Origin: Elusimicrobiota bacterium
GTDB taxonomy: Bacteria; Elusimicrobiota; Elusimicrobia; UBA1565; UBA9628
Reading direction: 5' to 3'
NCBI GenBank assembly: GCA_023213235.1
Contig: CP096137.1
Span: 2,350,723 to 2,414,722, forward strand
Length of the DNA: 64,000 nt
The translations under genes were made by a program, and so were the position numbers. This document shows positions 30,520 to 44,128 of the stretch, one piece after another. Below the pieces are notes generated by a model. The model was not told where the DNA came from, made no database searches, and saw only the letters and a list, made by a program, of their open reading frames with translations. The stretch's first letter is position 1. Each line of letters starts with the position of its first letter.

Positions 30520-31497
30520 AGATCCTCGTTCTGACGCTCAATACGGCGGCGCTGCCGCTCGTGCACCCGGCCGTGACCGAGCGCGTCGCCGCGCAGGCGG
30601 AGGCGATCGCCGCCGGAGGCTACGACGTCGTCGGGCTGCAGGAGGTATGGCTCAAGCGCGACGAGAACGTTTTCCGGCGGAAGGCCGGGCTCGCGCATGC
30701 CTATGCCGGCTCGTCCGGCTTTCCCGTGAGCGCGGGCCTGATGATCCTCTCGCGCTGGCCGTTCGCGCAGACCGAGGAGCGGGTCTTCTCCGTCCTGCGC
30801 CCGTCGTGGCTCAAGATCTCCAACGGGGAGCCGCTCGCGCGCAAGGGCGTCCTGCGCGCGCGCGTCGCGACGCCGGGGGGACCGCTCGACGTCTACGCGT
30901 CGCATCTGCTGTCCAACTACGGGGAAGGGACGTCCTACATGGGCCTGCGCACGGCCGAGCTCTTCGAGCTCGCCGAGTTCGTCCTCGAGCGCTCGTCGAC
31001 GACGCCCTACGTGATCCTCGCCGACCTCAACGCCGGGCGGGGCACGCGCGATTTCGACTTGTTCATGGACCTGCTCGGCGCGCGCGACGCCTGCCGGAAA
31101 GGGGACGCGGAGCTCTGCGGCGACCGCCGCCGGGGCGGCGAGCGCATCGACTTCGTCCTCCTGCCGCCGGGGGCCCCGCACGCCGTCGCGCGGAGTCTTC
31201 GACGGCCCCATTCCCGAGAGGACTCCGCCGCTGCCCTGGTCCGACCATAGCGGCTACGCCGCTTTGCTTAATAGCGCGCACCTTCGCGCGCCCGCCGCGC
31301 CGGACCGCCGCCGGCGCGAGGCCGCGCTCGCGGAGTTCGCGGAGCGCATGACGCGGATGATCGCCCTGCTCGACGCGGAGGGCCGCCGCGCGGCGCGGTT
31401 CCCGCTGTACGGGGCGCTCGCGAAGGCCCGCTACGCCCGGCAGTCGGCCGTCTTGTCCGCGCTGCGGGAGCGCGCGCTGTCGGCTAGTCGGCGTTGA
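30507..31497 (+). CDS. Endonuclease/exonuclease/phosphatase family protein, neutral-sphingomyelinase-like (frameshift ~31190)
   Basis: LTLN, DVVGLQEVW, GLMILSRWP, KG, ADLN, RIDFV, and SDH in the shifted frame. Confidence 0.8.
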
Positions 31498-32644
31498 CGA
31501 CGCGCGTGTCGGCGAGCAGGTCGTGCCAGCCGCGGCGCTGCGGCTCCCAGAACGCCCACAGGTAGCCGAGCCCGGCCGCGTAGCCGGACAGCAGGGACGC
31601 CGCCGCGCGCGTCATGCGCTGCTTGTTGTCGAGCGGCTTGCCGTCCATCGAGACGACCTTGAGCTTCATCAGCTTTTTGCCGGGCGTCGTGCCCCAGCGC
31701 TTGAGGAACACGAGGCTGTAGACGAACCAGGCCCCGGCGAAGAACCAGTCGCGGCCGCGCTTCGAGCCGCGCTTCGCGTCCTCGTCTACTTCCACCTGAA
31801 GTCCCTGCTTGTTGTCGTAGACGACCTTCGTGCCGTCGTCGTTCTTGACGTCGAGATTGAGTCCCTTCACGTTGATCGAGACCTTGCCGCCGCCCTCGAG
31901 CTTCTTGGTCGCGCGGACCCCCGGCCCGCCGTTGTCGCCGAACACCGCCGAGGTCAGCAGCGCGACGAGGATCCCGTCGATGATCAGGGCGCCGAAGCGC
32001 TTCCACGTGGACGGGACCGGGGCGGCGCCCGCGCCGGCGGGAACGGCCGTCGCGGCGGGCATGAGGCCGAACAGGCGCCGCGCGCCGGCGTCGGCCGCCG
32101 ACGCGGACGCGGCGCCGAGAGGCTCCTCGCGGCGCACCTTGTAGACGCGGATCTTCTCGGGGATGCCCTTGAGCTGCATGAGGCCGATCTCGCTCGAGGG
32201 GACCTCGGTCTTGTTCATCGCGAGGTAAACGGCCTCGGTGAACCACACCTGGCCGGCCTCGGCGATGCCCTCGATGCGCGCCGTGATGTTGACGGCTTCG
32301 CCGAACACGTCGCCGTCGACGAGGTTGATCTCGCCGGCGTTGATCGCGATGCGAATCTCGAGCCGGTCGCCGGAGTCGCGGCCCTCGTTGCGCTTGGCCA
32401 GCGCCTCCTGGACGGCGACGCCCGCGAGAACGGCGTTCGTCGGGCTCTCGAACGTCATCAGGAACGCGTCGCCGATCGTCTTCACGAGATGGCCGCCGCG
32501 TTCCTCGAGGATCGGCAGGACGAGCGAGCGGTGCTCGTCGAGCATGGTCTGGATATCGGCGCGCGTCTTCGCCGAGGTCTTGTCGGTGAAGCCCTTGATG
32601 TCCGTGAGGAGGATCGTCAGGTGTCGCGTGGTCGGGGCGGCCAT
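31484..32644 (-). CDS. Class III adenylate cyclase fused to an RDD membrane domain
   Basis: TDIKGFT, KTIGDA, DVFGEAVNITARIE; C-terminal WKRFGALIIDG...TPGKKLMKLKVV...RRGWHDLLADTRVV. Confidence 0.9.
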   Translation of the reverse strand: MAAPTTRHLTILLTDIKGFTDKTSAKTRADIQTMLDEHRSLVLPILEERGGHLVKTIGDAFLMTFESPTNAVLAGVAVQEALAKRNEGRDSGDRLEIRIAINAGEINLVDGDVFGEAVNITARIEGIAEAGQVWFTEAVYLAMNKTEVPSSEIGLMQLKGIPEKIRVYKVRREEPLGAASASAADAGARRLFGLMPAATAVPAGAGAAPVPSTWKRFGALIIDGILVALLTSAVFGDNGGPGVRATKKLEGGGKVSINVKGLNLDVKNDDGTKVVYDNKQGLQVEVDEDAKRGSKRGRDWFFAGAWFVYSLVFLKRWGTTPGKKLMKLKVVSMDGKPLDNKQRMTRAAASLLSGYAAGLGYLWAFWEPQRRGWHDLLADTRVVNAD

Positions 32645-32656
32645 GCGCTTATGATA

Positions 32657-34247
32657 TCACAGGCTCGACGCGTAGGGGGCGCCGAGCGCGGACAGGACGT
32701 CCTGCGCCGCGCGCACGCCGCGGTCGACGGCCTCCTCGAAGATCGACGCGCCCGACAGGTCGGAGTGCGCGAAGTGGATCGGGCCGAGCGGACGCGCGGC
32801 CTCGCGGCGCTCCGCGCCCGTGATGAAGCCCGGCCTCGGCAGGATCATGCCGTGGCCCCAGACCCAGCCGTCGAGGAGCGTCACCGAACCCCGAAGGCCC
32901 GGCAGGCCGCGCTCGAGGTCGGCGAGACACTCCTCGCGCCAGTCGGCGAGCGGGCGGCGGTAGGCGGCCATGCGCCTGCCGTCGGGATCGCCCGTCAGCG
33001 GCCGGTAGTAGGTCCACACCGAGTTCCGGCGGTTCGTCGCGAAGCTTTGGTGTCCCGCGTCCACGTAGCCGAGGCCCTCGCCTCCGTAGATCACGTTGTC
33101 CCACGCCGGCGCGGCGCCGAGGCCGGCGGGGGATTCTCGACCGTGAGGTTCGCGACGAACCACGGGGCGTACACGAAGCCCGACGGGCGCTTGTCCTCGC
33201 GCAGCGGCGCGACGATCCGGCGCGCGGCGAAGCGCGGCGCGCACACGATCGCGCGCTTGGCGCGGATGCGCCGCGTACGCCCGGCCTCGGCGTCGTACCA
33301 CAGCACCCGGGCGCCCCCGTTTTCGATTTCGACGTCGTAGGCGAGCGCGCGCGTGCGCACGCGCGCTCCCAGCGCGTCGGCGAGCCCGCGCACGAGAAAG
33401 CCGTTTCCCTCCGGCCAGACCAGAAACTGATCGTCTTCGCCTTCGCCGCGCGCGGCGTAGTAATGGAGTCCCGCCCACGCCGAAACCTCGGCGAGGCCGC
33501 CGCCGAAGTCGTCGCGGCACGCGTACTCCACGTACCAGCGCAGCCGCTTGGAGCGGAAGCCCTCGCGCGAGAGCCACGCGTCCATCGTCAGCGCGTCGAG
33601 CGCGAGCAGTTCGGGGTCGCGCGACGAGAGCTCCATCGGGATCGCGAACGCGGGCTTGCCGTCCGCCCCGGTCCGGCGGCGCAGCCGCGCGATCAGAGCG
33701 TGGAAGCGGTCGAGCTCGGCGAGGTCCGAGGGCTCCGCGCCGAGGCGGGGAACAGCCCGTCCTGCCAGCGCCCCGCGACATAGAGCCGCTCGGCCGGCGC
33801 GTGGCAGCGCATCGACTCGTCGTACACGGGCCGGCCGCCCTTCTCGCCGACGATGACCTTGAGGTCTCGCAGTATCTCGCGCACCGCGCGCGCTCGCGGC
33901 CCGGGAACCGGGAGGTAGTGCGCGCCCCACGGGTAGCGCGACACCGCGTTCTCGCCCCAGGCCGCGTTGCCGCCCGCGCGGCGCTCGAGGTCGAGCACGA
34001 CGAAGTCCTTGAAGCCCGAGCGCAGCAGCTTCCAGCCCGCCGCGAGGCCCGCGGCGCCGCCGCCGACGATCACGACGGGGACCGTTTCCTCGGAGGACGG
34101 CGCGTCGAACTTCCCGGCGCGCAGGCGGTGGCCGAGCTCGTGGTCGGGACCCAGCAGCTCGCCCGGGATCGCGCGCTCCGTGCGGCACGCGCCGAGCAAA
34201 GCGGACGCGATCGCCCCGCCGATGAACTCCCTACGCGTGAGGCCCAA
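32657..34247 (-). CDS. Tat-exported FAD-dependent amine-oxidase-like lipoprotein (frameshifts ~33745, ~33130)
   Basis: TRREF twin-Arg and LLGAC lipobox; VIVGGGAAG; WGAHYLP; WGHGM; HSDLSGASIFEEA. Confidence 0.85.
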
Positions 34248-35749
34248 TTATCCGCCGTGGTGGATGCGGGCCCACTCGCGCTCGTAGTTCTGGACGAGGA
34301 CCTGGGTGTCGAGGCGGTTGGGCTCGGCGGGGACGCGCGCCATGTCGGCGGGGAAGTCGAACATCCCCCGCGCGATGGCGGGCGTCAGGTAGCGCAGGCC
34401 GGGCGGGAAGCGCTCGGGGACGCGGTACGGGCCGCGCGAGCCGATGACGAAGCCCCACTCGCCGAAGGACGGAACGTAGGCGTGGTACGGGCTCGACGCG
34501 AGGCCGGCGGCCTCCATCGTCGCGACGACGGTCCAGAACGTCTTCCGCGCGAACAGGGGAGAGGTCGATTGGACGGAGACGAGTCCGTCCGGCGCGAGCC
34601 GCCGCGTCAGCAGGCGATAGAACGCCGTCGTGTACAGCTTGCCGACGGCGTAGTTCGAGGGGTCCGGGAAGTCGATGATCACGACGTCGAAGGAACGAGC
34701 GGAATTCTGCAGCCATTTGTAGGCGTCGGCGTTGACGACCTCCATGCGCGGGTCGCGCAGCGCGCCGCCGTTGAGGCGCGAGAGCTCGGCGTGCTCGGAG
34801 AAAAGCTTCGTCATGAGCGGGTCGAGGTCGACGAGCGTGACGCGCTCGACGCGGCCGTCGCGCAGGACCTCGCGCGCCGCGAGGCCGTCGCCGCCGCCGA
34901 GGATCAAGACCTGGCGCGGAGCGCCGTGCGCCGAGAGCGCGGGGTGGACGAGAGCCTCGTGATAGCGGTACTCGTCCATCGTCGAGAACTGCAGGCTGCC
35001 GTTGAGGAACAGCCGCCAGTCGTCCTTCCAGCGCGTCAGCACGATGCGCTGATAGGGGAGGACCTCGAGAAGATCACCTCGTCGGCGTACATGTCGCCCT
35101 CCGCGCGCGAGGCGATGCGCCCGGAGAAGACGAGGCCGAGCACCAGCGCGCACGCGGCCGCCGCGCAGCTCGCCCGCAATCCCGCGCGCTCGGGGATCGC
35201 GTCTCGGAACAGGTGCAAGGTCGCCGCGGCGACGCCGACGTTGAGCAGGCCGAAGAGCAGCGCCGTGTTCAGCAGGCCGAGCTTCGGCACGAGCACGAGC
35301 GGGAACAGCACGGAGGCGAACAGCGCGCCCAGGTAGTCCATCGTGAGGACCTGGGAGACGAGGTCCTTGAAATCGAGGCGATCGCGCAGGATGCGCATGA
35401 GCAGCGGGATCTCGAGCCCGACGAGCGCGCCGACGACGAAGACGACGAGGTAGAGCAGGACGCGGAAGCCCGTCGCGTGCGCGAACGAGAGGAAGAGCAG
35501 CGTCGATGAGAAGCCGCCGACGACGCCGACGAGCAGCTCGACCTGCACGAAGCGGGCCGCCAGCCCCTTCCCGACGAACCGCGACAGCCACGAGCCGACG
35601 CCCATCGCGAACAGGTACGCCCCGATGACGGTCGAGAACTGCAGGACCGTGTCGCCGAGCAGGTAGCTCGCGAGCGCTCCCGCCACGAGCTCGTAGACGA
35701 GCCCGCAGGTCGCGACCAGGAACAGCGAGGCGAACAGCGCGACGGTCAC
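34248..35749 (-). CDS. speE: Membrane-bound polyamine aminopropyltransferase, spermidine-synthase-like (frameshift ~35060)
   Basis: About 7 TM N-domain (CGLVYEL, GLEIPL, DYLGAL); LFLNGSLQF, YHEALVHP, ILGGGDGLAAREV, IDFPDP. Confidence 0.9.
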
Positions 35750-35750
35750 G

Positions 35751-35969
35751 TCAGCCCAGCATCGACGCGGCGATGATCAGGCCCATCGCGACCGAGAGGC
35801 CCGCCATGACGGTGGCCAGCGCGCGGTTCTGCTTGGCGATGATCTCGTTCCAGAGGTCGTAGGGCGTCAGCTTGTCGAAGATCACGAACCAGGCGAAGAA
35901 TACGGCGGCCCCGAGGCCCGAGTACACGACCGCGCCGAGCAGGTGCTGCGCGTCCAGTATGGTCTTCAT
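35751..35969 (-). CDS. DUF350 family membrane protein
   Basis: FDKLTPYDLWNEIIAKQNRALA between two TM helices. Confidence 0.85.
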   Translation of the reverse strand: MKTILDAQHLLGAVVYSGLGAAVFFAWFVIFDKLTPYDLWNEIIAKQNRALATVMAGLSVAMGLIIAASMLG

Positions 35970-36151
35970 CACTTCCCTCCGTAGTATCGATGGTAGCCGG
36001 AATAATGCGAGCGGTAGGAACCGGGATTGTCGCGCACGGACTTCGGGACGCCGGGCACGCGCTCGACGGGCGTGAACCACCAGCCCGTCCACAGCGCCCA
36101 GGCGCCGAAGGCCGCGACCGCGGCCGCGTACAGGCGGTACCAGCGGTTCAT
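35969..36151 (-). CDS. 60-aa membrane-anchored peptide ending in GGK
   Basis: TM segment, then VPKSVRDNPGSYRSHYSGYHRYYGGK; start/stop overlaps on both sides. Confidence 0.8.
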   Translation of the reverse strand: MNRWYRLYAAAVAAFGAWALWTGWWFTPVERVPGVPKSVRDNPGSYRSHYSGYHRYYGGK

Positions 36152-37526
36152 TCGTCGTCCTCCCATTCCTCGGAGACGCGCGGGTGGTCGCTTTCCATCC
36201 AGCGCGAGGTCTCGAACACCGAGGAGCGGAGCGCGGCGAACAGCGGGGGCAGAAGCAGGAGGATCACGCAGATGAACGGCCAGCGCGCCAGCGGCGTGCC
36301 CCGCTTGACGGCCACGCGCAGTCCTAATCGAGCCGAGTCGGTCTCCGGCTCGACGCGCAGGTAGTAGCGGCCGGGGGAACGCTCGGCACCTGCACGGTCG
36401 CGTAGCGGGAGCCCTCGCTCCACGATTCCCCGCCGTCGTACCCGTGGTAGTACGAGAGCTCCCGGCCGAAGTCGAGGGCCTGATCGGTGTCGGCGTTGAT
36501 GAGCGCCAGCGACACGTACGCCCACTGCTGGTCGAGATTGGAATCGAGCAGGACCTCGACGTTCGTCGCCCGGCCGCCCGGCAGTTCGAAGACTTCGGTC
36601 ACGCGCGAGCGCTCGGCCTCGCCGGCGGCGACGTCGAACTCGCCGCGATAGGACTCGGGCGGGTTGCCGGCGGCGGCGGCGAGCCACAGGTAGGCGCCGA
36701 TGCAGACGGCCGAGGCGACGGTGAAGACGCCCCACATGCCGAGCAGCTGGGAGCCCCACGGATTCGGCTGCGCGGGGCCGACGCCGATCTTGGACGGCGG
36801 GGAGCCGGGCAGCGCGAAGGCGGCCCAGATCTCCTCGGGCTCGACGTACTCGCCGGCGCTCCAGACCGTTTCGGCCGCCGTGATCTCCTGAGAGAGCAGA
36901 TACGGAGGGTCGATGAAGTCGCGCATGCGCGCCGCGTCGCCGACGGTCGCGATCCACGGAAACTCGCCGTAGACGGCGGTCGTGACCGGCACGCTCGTCT
37001 GGAAGTGCTGGTAGACGCGGCCGTCGAGCGTCGCCGTCGGCGCGCGGCCGGCGTCGGGGTTCTGTGCGTTCGACATCTCGGGCGGCACGATGTCCTTGTC
37101 GGCCTTCGCGGGAAGATCGGGGTGGAGCTTCTTCGCCTTGGCCGGGACGGCGGCCGCGGGCGCCGCGGGCGCCGCCGGCGCCTCTGCGTCGTCCTCCGCC
37201 GGGCGGCCCGCGACGTTCTCGACTCCCGTCAGGCGGCGCAGGACGAGGATCTCTCCGGCGTCGAACCAGATCGAGCCGCAGGCGCCGCAGCGGTCGGCCT
37301 CGATGCCGCCGTCGTAAGCCTTGCCCGTCTCCATCGGCCGCCGGCAGCGCGGACAGTCGAACCGCGCCGGCGTCGCCCCGACGAGCTTCAACGGCACGGC
37401 CAGACCGTCCTTCGGGTACAGCACCCCGGAGCAGCCGGTGCAATGCTGGACGATCACGCCGGGCGCGGGCTCGTGCGCCTCGAGAGGGGCCTTGCACTTG
37501 GGACAGTCGAAGCGCTCGGCCATCAT
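36148..37526 (-). CDS. Double TFIIB-type zinc ribbon + C-terminal half of DUF4178 + TM/periplasmic domain (frameshift ~36375)
   Basis: CPKC..CTGC, CPRC..CGACGSIWFDAGE; YQHFQTS..YGEFPW..VWSAGEY; ends FETSRWMESD. Confidence 0.75.
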
Positions 37527-37897
37527 CGCTCCTTGACCTTCGTCTCGACGGTCTTGAGCAGGTTCCAGTGGCCGTTCGACTCGACGAGCCAGCGGAAGCC
37601 CTTGTAGGGGTTCCACAGCAGGTACTCGTTCCACTGGTAGATCACGCCGGAGTAGCGCACCGCCCGCGTCTGCCGGCCGATGACCTCGAGCTTCTCGCCG
37701 CGCAAGGTCCCGCGCGCGCCGATCGGAAGCCACGGCGCACGGCCGAGTTTGGCCCGGTAGCGGGCGAGAATCTGATGGCGGGGGTCGCGCGCGTCGAGCA
37801 CCGCGCCGCAGTGCTCGCAGGCGAGGCTGTCGCTGACGCCCTCGGCGCGCAGGACGAGCGGAGCGCCGCACGACGTGCAGTCGAAGCGCGCGCTCAC
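37523..37897 (-). CDS. Zinc ribbon + N-terminal half of DUF4178
   Basis: CTSCGAPL..CEHCGAVLD; IGARGTLRG..WNEYLLWNPYKGFRWLVESNGHW. Confidence 0.75.
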   Translation of the reverse strand: MSARFDCTSCGAPLVLRAEGVSDSLACEHCGAVLDARDPRHQILARYRAKLGRAPWLPIGARGTLRGEKLEVIGRQTRAVRYSGVIYQWNEYLLWNPYKGFRWLVESNGHWNLLKTVETKVKER

Positions 37898-38518
37898 GTC
37901 CAGCCCTCGAACGTCTTGAGCCCGGTCAACGACAGGGCGTCGAAGCCCTGGTACTCGCCGGCGAACACGACGGCCGGCGTCTCGGAGTAGTCGAACGTCG
38001 CGAAGGCGCCCTTCTCTCCGATGAGGTCGGCCGACCGAGCCTTCTCGCCGAGCGGGGGCGAAACGGCAGTTCGCCCTGCGCCGCGAGGTAGGCCGCCTCG
38101 ATGATCTCGCGGACCTCGTAGACCGTCCCCTCGACGTCGACCTTCGCGCCGAGCTTGAGAGCGCGGAGGTCCGGCGCCTTCTGCTCGACCTTGAAGCTCA
38201 CCGCGTAGGTGCCCTGCGCCTCGCCGAGCCAGCCCTGGCGGCCGTCGGCGAAGACGAGGCACCATTCGTTCCAGAAGCCGCGCGGGGTCTTGAGCTGGAC
38301 GCGCCCGACGACGTCGAACGGGGCGGCCCGGTAGACGCCGCGCGCGCCGACCTGAAGGGGGAGCCGTCGGGCTGAAGCTGGGCCGATTCGCCGAGCTTCT
38401 CGACGTCGAGATCCGATCTGCGCACGAGCGCGCGGCAGAACGGGCACACGGCCAGGAGCATGATCGACGTCCGGAAGGGAACCTGCGCGCCGCACGACGG
38501 GCACTTGCGCTCGATCAT
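37894..38518 (-). CDS. Zinc ribbon + DUF4178 protein (frameshifts ~38360, ~38055)
   Basis: CPSCGA..CPFC; VVGRVQ..WNEW..GWLGEAQG; AQGELPF; FATFDYS. Confidence 0.8.
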
Positions 38519-39617
38519 GAAGTTCCAGAGATTATCGGACTTGCCTTGGGCGAAAGCAAGCCGAGATTCTCGGAAAGTCCGGGGTTGCTGCCGTCGAAGC
38601 GCCACAGCCAGGCGTCGAGCAGGTAGTGCGTCGCCTGCGGCAGGGCGAGCAGCGGGATGAGCACGGCCGCCATGCCGCCCGCCGGCGCCCAGGACGCCGT
38701 CGTTCCGAAGAAGATCGCCCCGTGCTCCTTCCAGACGAGGGAGTCCCACACGCCTTCCTCGAGATACGCGAGCGCCAGCAGAAAGCCCGCGAAGGCGAGC
38801 ACGCCGGAGACGGTGGCCTCGTGCCAGCGTTCGCGCCAGCTCCCGTCCTTCCAGGCGCGCCGGCCGTACAGCCAGACCAGGGCATAATAAGGAATCCCGT
38901 GCGCCGCGATGTTGGTGACAGTGAACGCGAAGTCCGAGTTCGTCGCGACGATGCCGACGTACCACGCCGCGGCCGTCGTCCCGATCACGGCGAGCTTGCC
39001 GGGATGGACCTCGAGGCCGTATTTGCGCCGCCAGAGCTGGCGCCCGGCGAACGCCCCGAGCACCGCGGCGTACGCGCCGCCCGCCCACGCGCCCGCCGCG
39101 CGGTTGAGCGCCAGGAAGTCGCCCTGCACGAACCACCAGAATTTGCGCGCGGGATCGGCATGCCAGTAGACGAGAGGATAGAGCATCGTGGCGTAGATCG
39201 CCGCGGCCTCGAGCCGTTGCTCCCACGCAGGCTTCGGACCCTCGAGGTGGGCGTACGCGCGCATGAAGCCGTACTGCTGGCGCACGAAGTGGAACACCGC
39301 GAGATAGGCGAGCGCTCGCCAGAACGCCAGCGGGGAGACGCGGTACAGAAGCGCGCCCACGAGCCAGGCCGCGACCGGGAGATAGGTGTACAGAGCGCGG
39401 CGGCGCGGGAACTCGACTGGATCGAGGTACGTCCTATAAAGCGTGGCGTACACGTGCCCGACGTCGATGAACACGACGAAGATCAGCCAGCCCCACGGCG
39501 GCGTGTCCGGCGCGCGCAGCGCGGGGATCAGGAGCACCGCCAAGGCGGCGAACAGCGGAGGCCCGGCGAACCAGCCGAGGTCGAAGGCGGGGAGTGCAGC
39601 CAGCGGCGCTCCGTCAC
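38515..39617 (-). CDS. Polytopic membrane protein with conserved His motifs (frameshift ~39590)
   Basis: TATGAT-6 nt-GTG 39617; DVGHVYAT, FHFVRQQYG, AHGIPY, THYLLDAWLW; stop overlaps the DUF4178 start. Confidence 0.75.
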
Positions 39618-39670
39618 GGCGTCATCATATCAGTCTTGCGCGAATCCGGCGCGCCCGTTATCCTACGGCC

Positions 39671-41097
39671 ATGGCCTGGCGTGACCACGTCGAGCCGGAC
39701 TGGTTCCACGAGGCGCCGTTCTACCTCGCGGCGACGATCGCCCACGGGGCCCTGCTGACCTTGAACCCGATGATCAACTGGGGCTCGCTCGCCGCGCCGG
39801 AGAAGGTCGTCCCGATCGAGTTCGTCGCCGAGGTCCCGCTGCCCGCCGTCGTCGCGCCGGCCCCGCCGCTGCCCGCGCCGCTGCCGGCGCTGGCGCCCGG
39901 CGGCGACGGCACGAAGGGCGCGCCCAAGCACGGCCCCGGCAAGCTCGAGGCGGAGAAGGTCAAGCGCGGCGCCGTCGACCCGCCGCCTAAGCCCAAGCCG
40001 GTCCCGAAGCCCGCGGCCGTCAAGTCGAAGTCCGACAAGGCCGGAACCACGGTGAAGAAGGCCGCGGCGAAGCCCAAGCCTCTCGCCCGGCCCGTCGACG
40101 ACCGCGCCGCCAAATTCGCGCGCGAGGCGCAGGCCGAGTCGCGCCGCGTGCGCGCCGAGAAGGACCGCGCCGCGCGCGCCGTCGTCGCCGAGCGGGCGGC
40201 CGCCGCCCGCGCCGACAAGGAGCGCCGCGCCGCCGAGCTGCGCGCCGTCGAGGCCGAGCGCGCCGAGGCCGAGCGCGCCGAGAAATCGCGCCTGGCCGCC
40301 GAGGCGCGCCTGGAGAGGAGCGCCGCGCGGCGCAGGCCCGCGCCGAGGCCGAGCGGCTCGCCGAGGCGCGCCGTCAGGAAGCCGCGCGCAAGGCGGCCGC
40401 GCTCGCCGAGCAGAAGCGCCTGGCCGCCGAGGCCAAGGCCGCGAAGGCCGCCAAGCGCGCGGCCCTGACCTCCGCGCTCGCGACGATGGCCGACCCCGAC
40501 GAGGCGCTCGAGGCCTCCGAGGCCGCGCCCGCGAGCGGCCGCGGCTCCGCGCGCAGGGGCAAGCCCGCGCGCGGCGGCCCCGCGGGCCAGGGCGCCGCCG
40601 GCCCCGGCGCCTCGGGCGACGACGTCGCCGGCGACGCCGGCGGCCTCGGCGGAGGAGCCGCCGAGCTCGCGGGCGCGCGCCGCGCGGGCGCCGCCGCCGC
40701 GCTCGCCGAGTCCACCGACCCCGGCGACGACGCCGGCTCCGGCGGCGCCGACCTCATCGACGCGCCCGCCAAGGGCGGGGGCGACGGCCCCGACGGCGGG
40801 GGCGTCTCCTACTCCCTCGACGGCCCCGTCGGCAACCGCCGGATCGTCTCGCGCGTCGCGCCGTCGAGCCCGGACTGGGTCGCGGTGCGCAATCTCGACC
40901 TGACCGTCATCGTCCGCTTCCAGGTCCTGCCCGACGGCTCGGTCAAACAGGGCGCCGTGATCCAGAAGACCTCCGGCTTCCCCGAGATCGACGCGCGCGC
41001 CCTCAAGGCCCTCTCCAAGTGGCGCTTCCAGCCCGTACCCGCCAAATCCGGCGCCGCGGAAGTGTGGGGACGCGTCTCCTTCCGCTTCACGTCCTGA
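39671..41097 (+). CDS. TonB/TolA-like energy transducer (frameshift ~40315-40340)
   Basis: TM with ATIAHG, Pro-rich and Ala/Lys/Glu helical linker, TonB_C VRFQVLPDG..KTSGFPEIDARALKALSKWRF. Confidence 0.85.
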
Positions 41098-41677: not shown

Positions 41678-41706
41678 ATCGCCCGCCGCGTTCATCGGCG
41701 GGCGAT
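41678..41706. terminator. Hairpin, probable terminator
   Basis: ATCGCCCGCCG-cgttcat-CGGCGGGCGAT just after the stop at 41674. Confidence 0.6.
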
Positions 41707-41738
41707 TGACTTTACGGGGGCGACTCTACACTTCGGGC

Positions 41739-44128
41739 ATGAGGCGCGCCCTCGGCGTGTTCTTCCTCTATTGCCTCGCCGCGTCCGCGGCGCAGGCCGC
41801 GCGTTCTCCCAAGGTCAAGAACGAGGACGCGCCCTCGCGCGACGGCTGGAACTCGATGAACATGGAGGCCCAGGCCGTCATGGGCGAGCTCCAGCTCCAG
41901 TCCGGCGACCCGCGCGCCGCGCAGCGCACGTTCCAGCGCACGCTCGACATCGGCACCAAGGTCACCGGACCGCGCGCCGAGGTCGCCGCGCAGAGCCACT
42001 TCCGCAGCGCCGAGATCGCGCTCGCCAAGGGCGAGTACTCCGACGCGCGGCGCAACCTCGAGATCCTGATCCAGCGCTACCCGGAGACCGACTGGGCGGA
42101 GAAGGCCAAGCGCCTGCTGACCTCGGTTCCCGGCGGGGAATCGACGTACAAGGCCGAGGCCGACGAGCCGTTCGTGCCCGCGATGCCGTCCTCGTCGGCC
42201 GAGGAGGCGCTCGCGCGCCTGCGCGCGGCGATCGATGAGTCCCGGACCGAGGCCGCGCTGGCCGAGGCCTACGACTTCATCCGGCGCTACCCGTCGCGCG
42301 CCGAGCGGCCCGAGGTCGACCTCGCGGCCGGCGCCCTGCATCTGCGCCGCGGCGAGGCCGCGCGCGCGGTGCGCTTCCTCAAGCCGCTCGCCGCCGGCGC
42401 CGACCCCGCGCTCAAGAGCAAGGCGATCCACCTGATCGGCGCCGCGCTCGCGAGCCTCGGCCTCGACGAGGCCTCGCTCAAGGTCGTGCCGGCGGCCGAC
42501 CCGGGCGCCACGCCCGACCGCTGGCTCGCGCTGGCGCAGGTGTGGCGCGCCGCGGCCGAGGAGCGCATGGGCCGGCGCGAGGACGCCGCCGAGCTGTACC
42601 GCGCGATCTCCGCGTCGGGCCAGGACTCGCCGGTCAAGGCGTACGCGCTCGGCGCGATCGCCGCGGACTGGGACCGCCGCGGCAAGCCCGACCGCGCGCG
42701 CGACGCGCTCAAGCGGACGCAGGAGGCCGCGGCCAAGTACGGCCTCGTCGAGCTGCGCGAGTCGGCCGCGCTGTCGGAGGCGCACCTGCTCCTGCGCGGG
42801 CGCCGGCTCGAGGACGCGCAGAAATCCTACGCCGACTTCGCGACGCGCTACCCCGAGAGCCCGTTGCGCGCGCAGGCGCTGTACCAGCGCGGACTGGCGC
42901 TCAAGCGCCTCGAGCGTCCCGAGGACGCCGCCTCCGTCTTCGAGGACCTCTCCGTCCGGCATCCGGCCTCGGCGTACGCCGCCGACGCGCACCTGCAGCT
43001 CGGCCAGCTCTACACGGACCTCGGCCGCTCCGAGAAGGCGCTGACGCACTACCGCCTGATGGGCCGCGCCTCGGAGGCCGAGGACGGCGACCGCGAGGCG
43101 CTCCTGCTGATGGCGCAGGTCCACTACAACAAGAAGCGCTGGGCCGAGGCGGTCCCGCTTTATAAGCAATGGCTCCAAGGCGCGGCCCCGGGCGACGTGA
43201 AGTCCAAGGAGGTCGAGCGCCTGCTGCTCGTCGCGATGTGGCAGAACGACAAGGAGGACCCCGAGCTCCCCGCGCTCGTCGCGAAATACCCGAACCACGA
43301 GCTCGCCGGAAGGATCCGCTGGGACCTCGCCGCGAAGACCTACCGCTCCGGCGACTTCGACTCCGCCGAGCAGCTGTTCCGCCGCCACATCGAGAACAAC
43401 CCGCACGCCTCGAACGTCGGTGACGCGCGCTACTACCGCGCCGAGGCCCTGCGCCAGCTGCGCCGCGTCGACGAGGCCGCCGGCGCCTACCGCAAGTTCA
43501 TGGCCGTGCACCCGAAGCATGCGCGGCACAAGGACGCCGCGATGGCGCTCGGCCAGATGCTCTACGACGCAGGCGACGCGGCCGGCGCGGCCGCCGCGTT
43601 CGGGAAGGTCGGGGGAACGGGGAGGACGCCGCCGACGCCGCGTACAACCGGGCGCTCGCGCTCTCGAAGACCGGCGAGGGCCGCGGCGCGGAGAAGGCCT
43701 GGTCCGGCTTCGCCGCCAAGTTCCCGCGGCACGAGAAGGCCTCGTGGGCCTGGGGCCAGGCCGCGCGCTTGCGCGAGGAGAACGGAGACCTCGCCGGCGC
43801 CGCCGCCGCGTACGAGAAGGCGGCCGGCAAGGACGAGCGCATGAAGGCGCTGTACGCGCTCGGCCGCCTGCAGGAGCGCCGCAAGAAAGTCCGCGAGGCG
43901 AAGAACGCCTACGAGCGGCTCGGCGCGCTGCTGCCCAAGGACGACGCCTCGCGCCTGGCCGGCCAGCTGCGCCTGGCGCTCATGCTCGAGCTCGAGGACA
44001 AGCCGCAATCCGCGGCGCCGCTGTACATGGACGTCCTGCGCCACGCCGAGCGGGGAAGCCAGACCTTCGAGACCGCGCGCAAGCGCCTCGAGGCGCTCTC
44101 CGGCGACAAGTCCCTGATCCGGAAGTGA
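41739..44128 (+). CDS. Large exported TPR protein (CpoB/BamD-like repeats; frameshift ~43615)
   Basis: TACACT-6 nt-ATG; repeats YPETDWA, YPESPLRAQALY, HPASAYAADAHLQLG. Confidence 0.85.

Follow-up and report, generated by a model that had tools for sequence, protein, structure and literature searches.

Where does a membrane-bound aminopropyltransferase work when it is encoded beside an exported amine oxidase, and which amine does it modify? The question is raised by an operon on the minus strand of a 64,000-nucleotide stretch of DNA from an Elusimicrobiota bacterium (GenBank assembly GCA_023213235.1, contig CP096137.1, positions 2,350,723 to 2,414,722; the whole stretch is called the window below). 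The operon encodes a membrane protein with a SpeE-like catalytic domain (G), an amine-oxidase-like lipoprotein (H), zinc-ribbon and DUF4178 proteins (B, C, and D), a DUF350 protein (F), a membrane protein with invariant histidines (A), and a microprotein whose last residue is lysine (E). The charge pattern of G and the export signals of H would place both enzymes outside the cytoplasm, and we favour, with a confidence that falls a little short of even, the reading that the operon is an envelope-facing module for aminopropylation and oxidation. That the terminal lysine of E is the acceptor is a distinctly more tentative proposal.

In the window, the operon comprises eight genes, and probably a ninth, on the minus strand between 31484 and 39629. 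The eight genes had been described in a first-pass annotation made from the letters of the window, and all of them are present where it had located them, at 39617-32657 on the minus strand. Both the genes and the translational coupling that it claimed can be considered real, because neighbouring genes overlap or abut at six of the seven A-to-H junctions in the window (ATGA, GTGA, ATGA, ATGA, TGATG, and TAATTG; the F/G gap is 1 nt) and the spacings are similarly tight in an intact relative, the Elusimicrobia metagenome-assembled genome (MAG) contig L029 (−4, −10, −8, −4, −4, +4, and −4 nt). What that annotation overlooked are the frame breaks of the window copy, described further below, and gene I, which starts 12 nt after H, keeps this position in L029 and four other loci (five of 84 loci holding G), and is probably the ninth gene of the operon in the Elusimicrobiota lineage of the window. 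As the proteins of the window copy are interrupted, the L029 orthologues were used for family scans, models, and alignments; with them the window pieces share 78% identity in A, 56-83% in B, 78% in C, 58-62% in D, 82% in E, 86% in F, 82-90% in G, and 74-80% in H. The features of the operon are the following:

39624..39629, minus strand: −10-like box TATGAT, 6 nt before the GTG start of A, a candidate leaderless promoter
38515..39617, minus strand: A, a ten-helix membrane protein with invariant His and Asp residues, of a family without a Pfam entry
37894..38518, minus strand: B, a zinc ribbon followed by DUF4178
37523..37897, minus strand: C, a zinc ribbon with the first half of a DUF4178 domain; intact
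36148..37526, minus strand: D, two Zn_ribbon_TFIIB domains, a linker, the second half of DUF4178, a transmembrane (TM) segment, a beta-rich domain, a second TM segment, and an acidic tail
35969..36151, minus strand: E, a microprotein of 60 aa with a single TM segment and the C-terminus YYGGK; intact in translation
35751..35972, minus strand: F, a DUF350 protein (YjfL family) with two TM segments; intact
34248..35749, minus strand: G, seven hydrophobic segments and a Spermine_synth (aminopropyltransferase) domain of the PRK03612 type
32657..34247, minus strand: H, a flavin amine-oxidase-like lipoprotein with a twin-arginine translocation (Tat) signal and a lipobox, beginning MGLTRREFIGGAIASALLGAC
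31484..32644, minus strand: I, a class III nucleotidyl cyclase with an RDD membrane domain (PF00211 and PF06271)

The L029 orthologue of G scores 678.9 bits against NF002956 (PRK03612, polyamine aminopropyltransferase; cut-off 472), matching positions 19-520 of 522, and only 43.4 bits against NF037959 (MFS_SpdSyn), while the C-terminal piece of the window protein reaches 124.4 bits with PF01564. The nearest solved relatives are thermospermine synthase (1.6e-33) and the Thermus polyamine aminopropyltransferase (3.5e-33). Invariant in all 79 G homologues are GGGDG (G285-G289, including D288), D310, D342, DFPDP (D360/D363), K371, and Q394; the roles that we assign to the catalytic motifs (binding of decarboxylated S-adenosylmethionine (dcAdoMet), a ribose-binding acid, D-x-x-D-P) are presumably those of the corresponding residues in SpeE structures. 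Because of the PRK03612 score, the solved relatives, and the invariant motifs, G is most likely an active dcAdoMet-dependent transferase.

The first-pass annotation had counted about seven TM segments in this protein, which would put its catalytic domain outside provided that the N-terminus is inside. Seven segments are indeed found, and their loops carry a consistent charge bias: lysine and arginine average 10.1 in loops 2, 4, and 6 and 3.7 in loops 1, 3, and 5 together with the 16 residues after TM7, and the even loops come out ahead of this second set in every one of the 79 homologues. Acidic residues prevail in the stretch that follows TM7 (3.9 D+E versus 1.5 K+R). Since seven segments combine with positive even loops, the positive-inside rule predicts a catalytic domain outside the cytoplasm, so that the earlier topology holds at the level of prediction. 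Six residues of the TM domain are also invariant (E20, D33, E71, E113, D138, and N170), and the acidic ones among them would, speculatively, be as expected for the path of a cation. A search for short forms of the catalytic domain with a signal peptide was uninformative: the 120 matches listed, of 4777 at E ≤ 1e-20, looked like members of the 7-TM family at 59-86% identity and came mostly from short contigs. A profile of the seven TM segments retrieved nothing from the PDB sequences, and the N-terminal extensions of G are neutral in charge, their starts being uncertain. Five apparent G-H fusions of about 1000 aa combine a garbled C-terminus of G with a retained H signal peptide; they were rejected as frameshift read-throughs that carry no information on topology.

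The second enzyme, H, is predicted to be a Tat-exported lipoprotein. In the window, its signal (given in full above) consists of a twin-arginine motif, a hydrophobic region, and a lipobox Cys, and regular expressions applied to 70 unique full-length homologues recovered the RR motif in 62, the lipobox Cys in 59, and both in 54, which bears out the twin-arginine and lipobox assignment made earlier. The only Pfam signal in H is the FAD-binding Rossmann motif PF13450 (NAD_binding_8); Amino_oxidase (PF01593) is absent at E ≤ 0.01 from the window protein and from the orthologue, and precomputed PF01593 matches occur on some read-through relatives. A profile of 62 homologues, however, detects monoamine and putrescine oxidases in the PDB at 1e-13 over positions 50-353. 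The AlphaFold model of L029 H (pLDDT 91.8) has 8p84, 9h5p, and 2yg3 as its top Foldseek matches (best E 4.2e-25; TMq 0.65/TMt 0.76 to a putrescine-binding bacterial MAO) and also matches monoamine oxidases (MAO) A and B and spermidine dehydrogenase (SpdH); going by the model, the fold is that of a flavin amine oxidase. H shares this fold and the FAD-binding N-terminus with the solved enzymes (bacterial MAO 8p84/9h5p, putrescine oxidase 2yg3, MAO A/B, and SpdH 7d9f), whereas sequence identity to them is 16-22% and the Tat signal and lipobox are features of H.

G-like proteins (E ≤ 1e-50) were found in 19 of the 41 related genomes searched. A wider set of 84 loci holding G, drawn from genome collections and in many cases cut by contig ends, spans Elusimicrobiota, Burkholderiales (Variovorax, Acidovorax, Delftia, Ramlibacter), Gemmatimonadota, Acidobacteriota, and deltaproteobacteria-like MAGs. 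By tblastn, F and H accompany G in 75 of these loci each, C in 71, B in 69, D in 50, E in 21, A in nine, and I in five. G and H are kept adjacent across phyla, both here (75/84) and among 80 further loci collected with a profile of A (65-67/80). Because the core recurs in the same gene order in 84 + 80 loci of several phyla, the arrangement is, judged from gene order, far beyond chance. This core (DUF4178, DUF350, the membrane SpeE-like enzyme, and the amine oxidase) is spread over many phyla, among them cultured genera from soil and water (Variovorax, Delftia, and Pedobacter, for example). A quick tree of G resolves one clade per phylum, and we make no claim of recent transfer.

Several departures from the common layout were noted. 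In Acidovorax, a gene for a TonB-dependent receptor is inserted between the DUF4178/DUF350 part and G (L050:3835-6090), and wide spacing in the Comamonadaceae loci L056, L059, L084, L097, and L099 suggests insertions of the same sort. In the congener G009, a gene combining Band_7_1 with a double zinc ribbon lies on the opposite strand between A and B (L023:1182-2198, minus strand), and a class-1b speD precedes A. The position of the cyclase-RDD gene after the oxidase is kept solely in the closest Elusimicrobiota loci.

An aminopropyltransferase of this type would need dcAdoMet, and the first-pass annotation had noted, correctly, that no speD lies in the cluster. This absence is no argument against the ordinary donor, because the genome encodes a class-2 S-adenosylmethionine decarboxylase (AdoMetDC; PF01536, 1.7e-63) elsewhere, 1.2 Mb away and directly upstream of a soluble SpeE (G000:C1:3608598-3610111, L117). 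In this enzyme we take LSESS to be the processing site. Class-1 AdoMetDC (PF02675) is absent from the genome. Going by gene content, the cell can make the donor, and the soluble SpeE takes care of ordinary spermidine synthesis. Among the 19 relatives that bear the operon, AdoMetDC occurs in 17 (14 of class 2 and three of class 1b), and the two without it are 70% and 79% complete. In the congener G009, which is without class 2, the operon opens with a class-1b speD; a class-1b AdoMetDC gene lies inside the operon in L070, L055, and G009. The class-2 enzyme of L117 is of the eukaryote type, and its gene occurs in 22 of the 24 genomes searched within the genus and in 30 of 41 relatives.

A candidate for the acceptor is offered by the tail that E represents. 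A hidden Markov model (HMM) of E found matches in 24 of the 84 loci and 15 of the 80 further loci; all 39 end in Lys, and the weaker matches share nearly nothing beyond this residue. Tails were also collected by a hydropathy filter that accepted a TM-containing open reading frame or tail of 35-85 residues ending beside the DUF350 gene. Of 133 testable loci, 105 yielded such a tail, and the last residue is K in all 105 (89 end in HK and 16 in GK), as compared with 792 of 19,430 stop-to-stop segments (4.1%) in the control. The tail is not always a separate gene: in 43 Burkholderiales loci, the frame with the TM segment and a Gly/Ser-rich tail is open for about 500 codons. In four inspected Burkholderiales sequences DUF4178 runs into the tail in-frame, L047 and L065 having no Met shortly before the TM segment, and two further Burkholderiales fusions that were scanned with Pfam contain two DUF4178 stretches each. 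Because one TM segment follows zinc-ribbon domains that are taken to be cytoplasmic, the lysine would lie on the outer side. In the passages of Ravi et al. 2024 (PMC11237479) that bear on it, the cytoplasmic location of the zinc-ribbon/DUF4178 domains is itself an inference. In the split forms of the tail, the N-terminal flank has a net charge of +1.13 versus −0.05 for the first 15 tail residues. The peptide acceptor suggested by the first-pass annotation thus acquires a concrete candidate in the lysine tail, and in its role as acceptor the tail is a candidate only.

The remaining conserved components would form the cytoplasmic and membrane parts of the system. PF13785 (DUF4178) exceeds its cut-off in the window in B (32.2 bits, middle piece), C (31.9), and D (29.0), and reaches 53.6 bits on the intact B orthologue. 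The second DUF4178 gene is divided within its domain in Elusimicrobiota, with C covering profile positions 2-59 and D positions 68/71-136; in the Gemmatimonadota, Acidobacteriota, and delta-like loci, C and D are one protein with a whole DUF4178 domain. The half carried by D stands behind two inserted TFIIB-type zinc ribbons. Searches of the PDB with B and D returned just zinc-ribbon noise. At the C-terminus of D (L029 D residues ~430-464; window ~36148-36260), an F-E-x-x-R-W-x-E/N-S-D motif after the last TM segment is followed by an acidic tail, and both are kept from Elusimicrobiota to Bacteroidota. F scores 50.5 bits against PF03994 (DUF350/YjfL; cut-off 26).

A has no Pfam or NCBIfam family, and none was found in any of 85 relatives; it has 1117 representative relatives at E ≤ 1e-3. 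Its invariant residues (L029 numbering) are D53, H56, H111, Q115, H241, Y245, H330, D334, and W338. The model is all-helical (pLDDT 94.2), and Foldseek gave nothing in the PDB at E ≤ 0.001 (best E 0.12); a wide VIA-align search went no higher than Z 7.1 (rhodopsins), a level that helical bundles reach by noise. The Atlas returned just unnamed clusters. By charge bias, A would have ten TM helices with the invariant residues on the out-to-in ones. Because 65-67 of the 80 A loci hold the enzyme pair (a G homologue in 65 and an H homologue in 67), A is, by this gene neighbourhood, a regular member of the system. Outside Elusimicrobiota it stands directly after H, e.g., in Pedobacter, Chitinophaga, Obscuribacter-like, and alphaproteobacterial genomes. 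That A is a metal-dependent membrane enzyme is a guess. Two fusions of A were seen (with Peptidase M1 and with LptD), and both are possibly miscalls.

How could these parts work together? Three sequence-based arguments would place the chemistry outside the cytoplasm, namely the Tat signal of H, the charge topology of G, and the lysine tail. In the reading we favour, the housekeeping class-2 AdoMetDC, or in other lineages the class-1b SpeD of the operon, would produce dcAdoMet in the cytoplasm, and the catalytic domain of G would use it at the outer surface of the cytoplasmic membrane. The acidic 7-TM domain of G may, speculatively, act as the conduit for the cationic donor. G would then aminopropylate an amine on the outer face, for which the epsilon-amine of the C-terminal Lys of the tail (E) is the best, if speculative, candidate. 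The product would be a membrane-tethered polyamine, which H, as a Tat-exported lipoprotein, would oxidise or remove, or else it would act on related amines. B, C, and D on the cytoplasmic side, together with F and A, would provide a membrane-spanning scaffold or control part, the role of A being speculative. Protein lysines that carry an aminoalkyl or polyamine chain are known from diatom silaffins and hypusine; both are eukaryotic, and hypusine is made by different enzymes, so that they serve as an analogy only. We know of no lysine-linked polyamine on a bacterial membrane protein. An extracytoplasmic pathway of aminopropyl transfer and oxidation had already been proposed in the first-pass annotation; its site of action agrees with the predicted topology of G and the signals of H, and the rest goes beyond prediction. 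In its specific form, with the tail lysine as the acceptor of G, a protein-tethered polyamine on the outer face, donor passage through the 7-TM domain, and trimming by H, we would sooner doubt the proposal than assume it.

Should the enzyme domains work outside, chemistry derived from S-adenosylmethionine would extend to the bacterial envelope, with the lysine tail as a concrete acceptor. The tethered form would amount to a reversible, ribosomally templated polycation for the stabilisation of the envelope or for signalling, and to the first extracytoplasmic use of dcAdoMet.

Several points weigh against this reading. The topology of G comes from hydropathy and charge bias alone, and we know of no route by which dcAdoMet would be exported. 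Among the 133 testable loci, 28 escaped the tail filter, some of which, including Elusimicrobiota loci, are explained by the HMM. In Elusimicrobiota the tail itself contains many K/R, and the charge rule could therefore favour a cytoplasmic location for it. No direct tie connects the lysine with G or H. The proposed mechanism does not explain why the invariant His and Asp residues of A are located toward the cytoplasmic half of the membrane. H resembles enzymes that act on free putrescine and monoamines, which makes free amines plausible substrates.

The last point leads to the rival that survives best, in which the operon would serve surface polyamine homeostasis: G would make a free polyamine (spermidine, thermospermine, or a longer one) outside, starting from a di- or triamine of the periplasm, H would degrade the excess, and the tail would be structural or a regulatory pseudo-substrate. 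The solved structures closest to the catalytic domain, those of thermospermine synthase and of the broad-range Thermus enzyme, argue for such an activity, as does the likeness of H to putrescine oxidase and to the putrescine-binding MAO, and the evidence on G topology and H export fits equally well. It leaves unexplained, however, why a tail that varies so much elsewhere keeps only its last residue invariant. A soluble SpeE is, moreover, already encoded next to the AdoMetDC of this genome, and related membrane fusions reportedly gave neither spermidine nor complementation (Li et al. 2019). We give this account a low but appreciable chance of being right.

A prediction error in the topology is a less probable way out. 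G would then be cytoplasmic, an ordinary aminopropyltransferase localised at the membrane, and H would scavenge external polyamines independently of it. The cytoplasmic location of dcAdoMet, the NCBIfam equivalog (polyamine aminopropyltransferase), and the wholly canonical catalytic motifs are all in line with this view, but it has to set aside the outside-type charge bias of all 79 homologues with their acidic post-TM7 stretch, the adjacency of G and H across phyla (75/84 and 65-67/80 loci), and the second, soluble SpeE of the genome, and it is in our opinion unlikely.

The place of the operon among known systems bears on the next rival. The first-pass annotation had stated that DUF4178/DUF350/spermidine-synthase neighbourhoods recur in bacteria, are linked computationally to envelope stress, and have no biochemical function known to it. 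This was right: the operon type is described in Ravi et al. 2024 (mSystems, PMC11237479), where the main-text passages present polyamine operons associated with the phage shock protein (PSP) system and a PspA-less variant with Band-7-SHOCT, AdoMetDC, and a polyamine oxidase. According to these passages of PMC11237479, the operons share with the window a 7TM protein with a spermine/spermidine-synthase-like part, YjfL/DUF350, DUF4178, and a polyamine-oxidase-like gene. In our loci from other phyla, Band_7_1-SHOCT or zinc-ribbon genes and class-1b AdoMetDC accompany this core. Compared with the same description, the window operon has no Band-7, PspA, or AdoMetDC gene, whereas it has A at its head, a split C and D, and the cyclase-RDD gene at its end. 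The main-text passages of PMC11237479 make no mention of the A family or of the lysine-ended tail, which its supplementary tables may list. By gene content, the window operon is a lineage variant of a computationally described operon type. Our literature search found no biochemical study of this type.

Two other systems invite comparison. Li, Kurihara, Kim, Liang, and Michael reportedly described, in Biochem J in 2019, AdoMetDC-dependent clusters of AdoMetDC, a membrane-bound SpdSyn-like fusion, and DUF350. The related membrane fusions are said to have given no spermidine and no complementation, and no acceptor is said to have been identified; the fusions were reportedly of the MFS type, unlike the PRK03612-type G. 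In Mycobacterium tuberculosis, we take Rv2597-Rv2601 to be a DUF4178/DUF4247/DUF2617/DUF350/SpeE cluster, and nothing functional was found on it in the literature. This cluster, a variant in the relevant passages of PMC11237479, shares with the window DUF4178, DUF350, and a membrane SpeE of the PRK03612 type. Compared by those descriptions, it has DUF4247 and DUF2617 where the window has the amine oxidase, A, and the lysine tail.

Ravi et al. 2024 (PMC11237479), in the passages concerned, read such operons in terms of stress, and the window operon could accordingly be seen as a system chiefly for stress sensing or membrane remodelling of the PSP/Band-7 kind, with a local polyamine signal and, in the window lineage, a nucleotide output through the cyclase-RDD protein encoded 12 nt after H. 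A Band_7_1 gene with SHOCT or a zinc ribbon does stand directly upstream of the DUF4178 genes in L048, L053, L070, L077, and L050, and one lies on the opposite strand in L023. Yet no Band-7 gene is present in 31484-39617, the sole Band_7_1 match of the genome (C1:3043271-3043891) is about 0.65 Mb away, and PspA has no score over the cut-off anywhere in the genome. As the cyclase accompanies G in only five of 84 loci and this account names no chemistry, we judge it quite improbable.

There remains the condition of the window copy itself. Searches with the L029 proteins (tblastn) revealed seven 1-base frame breaks in five of the eight genes, at about 39588 in A, 38357 and 38060 in B (whose reading frames in the window are −1/−3/−2), 36375 in D, 35054 in G, and 33746 and 33128 in H. 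All seven sit in C4 or C5 runs of the coding strand, with C5 runs at both breaks of B. Throughout the window, runs of at least six G or C are about six-fold rarer (0.06 per kb) than in four relatives (0.36-0.46 per kb), and the window's CCCC near the start of A is CCCCC in six of six relatives. At four of the seven sites (33746, 35054, 36375, and 39588), short-read contigs from a related population in groundwater are longer by one base, the other three sites having no row among the listed groundwater matches. Two groundwater DNA runs with small shares (0.07 and 0.05) represent relatives and not the source organism, and the survey of sequencing runs lists no RNA run as a holder. The same kind of break is seen in an unrelated gene elsewhere in the genome, the soluble SpeE of L117, and the assembly is a single 3.8-Mb contig whose marker completeness is just 83.6%.

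The seven breaks are thus very probably homopolymer undercalling in a long-read assembly and not gene decay, and probably belong to systematic 1-base deletions across the assembly, which would also fit the low completeness of a single contig. That the operon is genuinely decaying in the source strain is very improbable: the breaks are present in the window sequence as given and the available reads derive from relatives, but each of the seven lacks a single base within a C4/C5 run, the window as a whole is poor in long G/C runs, the soluble SpeE gene shows a like break, every piece otherwise keeps 56-90% protein identity to L029, and a single contig is combined with low marker completeness. In practice, the apparent pseudogenes of the window are best treated as assembly errors, and gene calls from this genome need frameshift-aware handling.

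Expression of the operon may start from the −10-like box upstream of A, which lies in a divergent intergenic region of about 50 nt. The first-pass annotation had proposed a single leaderless promoter. An alignment of seven Elusimicrobiota loci shows TAT[A/G]AT, exactly 6 nt, and GTG kept in all of them, with TATAAT in the six relatives, and this conserved spacing makes a leaderless transcript plausible; the consensus scan, for its part, found no full two-hexamer sigma-70 site (0). Terminator-like sites are at chance level (five versus 3.4 expected).

On the other side of this intergenic region, which it shares with the operon, a divergent gene on the plus strand (39668-41094) encodes a Pro/Lys/Ala-rich protein with a TonB_C domain (47.2 bits) that is read in two frames. 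A frame-shifted appearance is common to this TonB-like gene and to the end of a TPR gene at 41706-43841.

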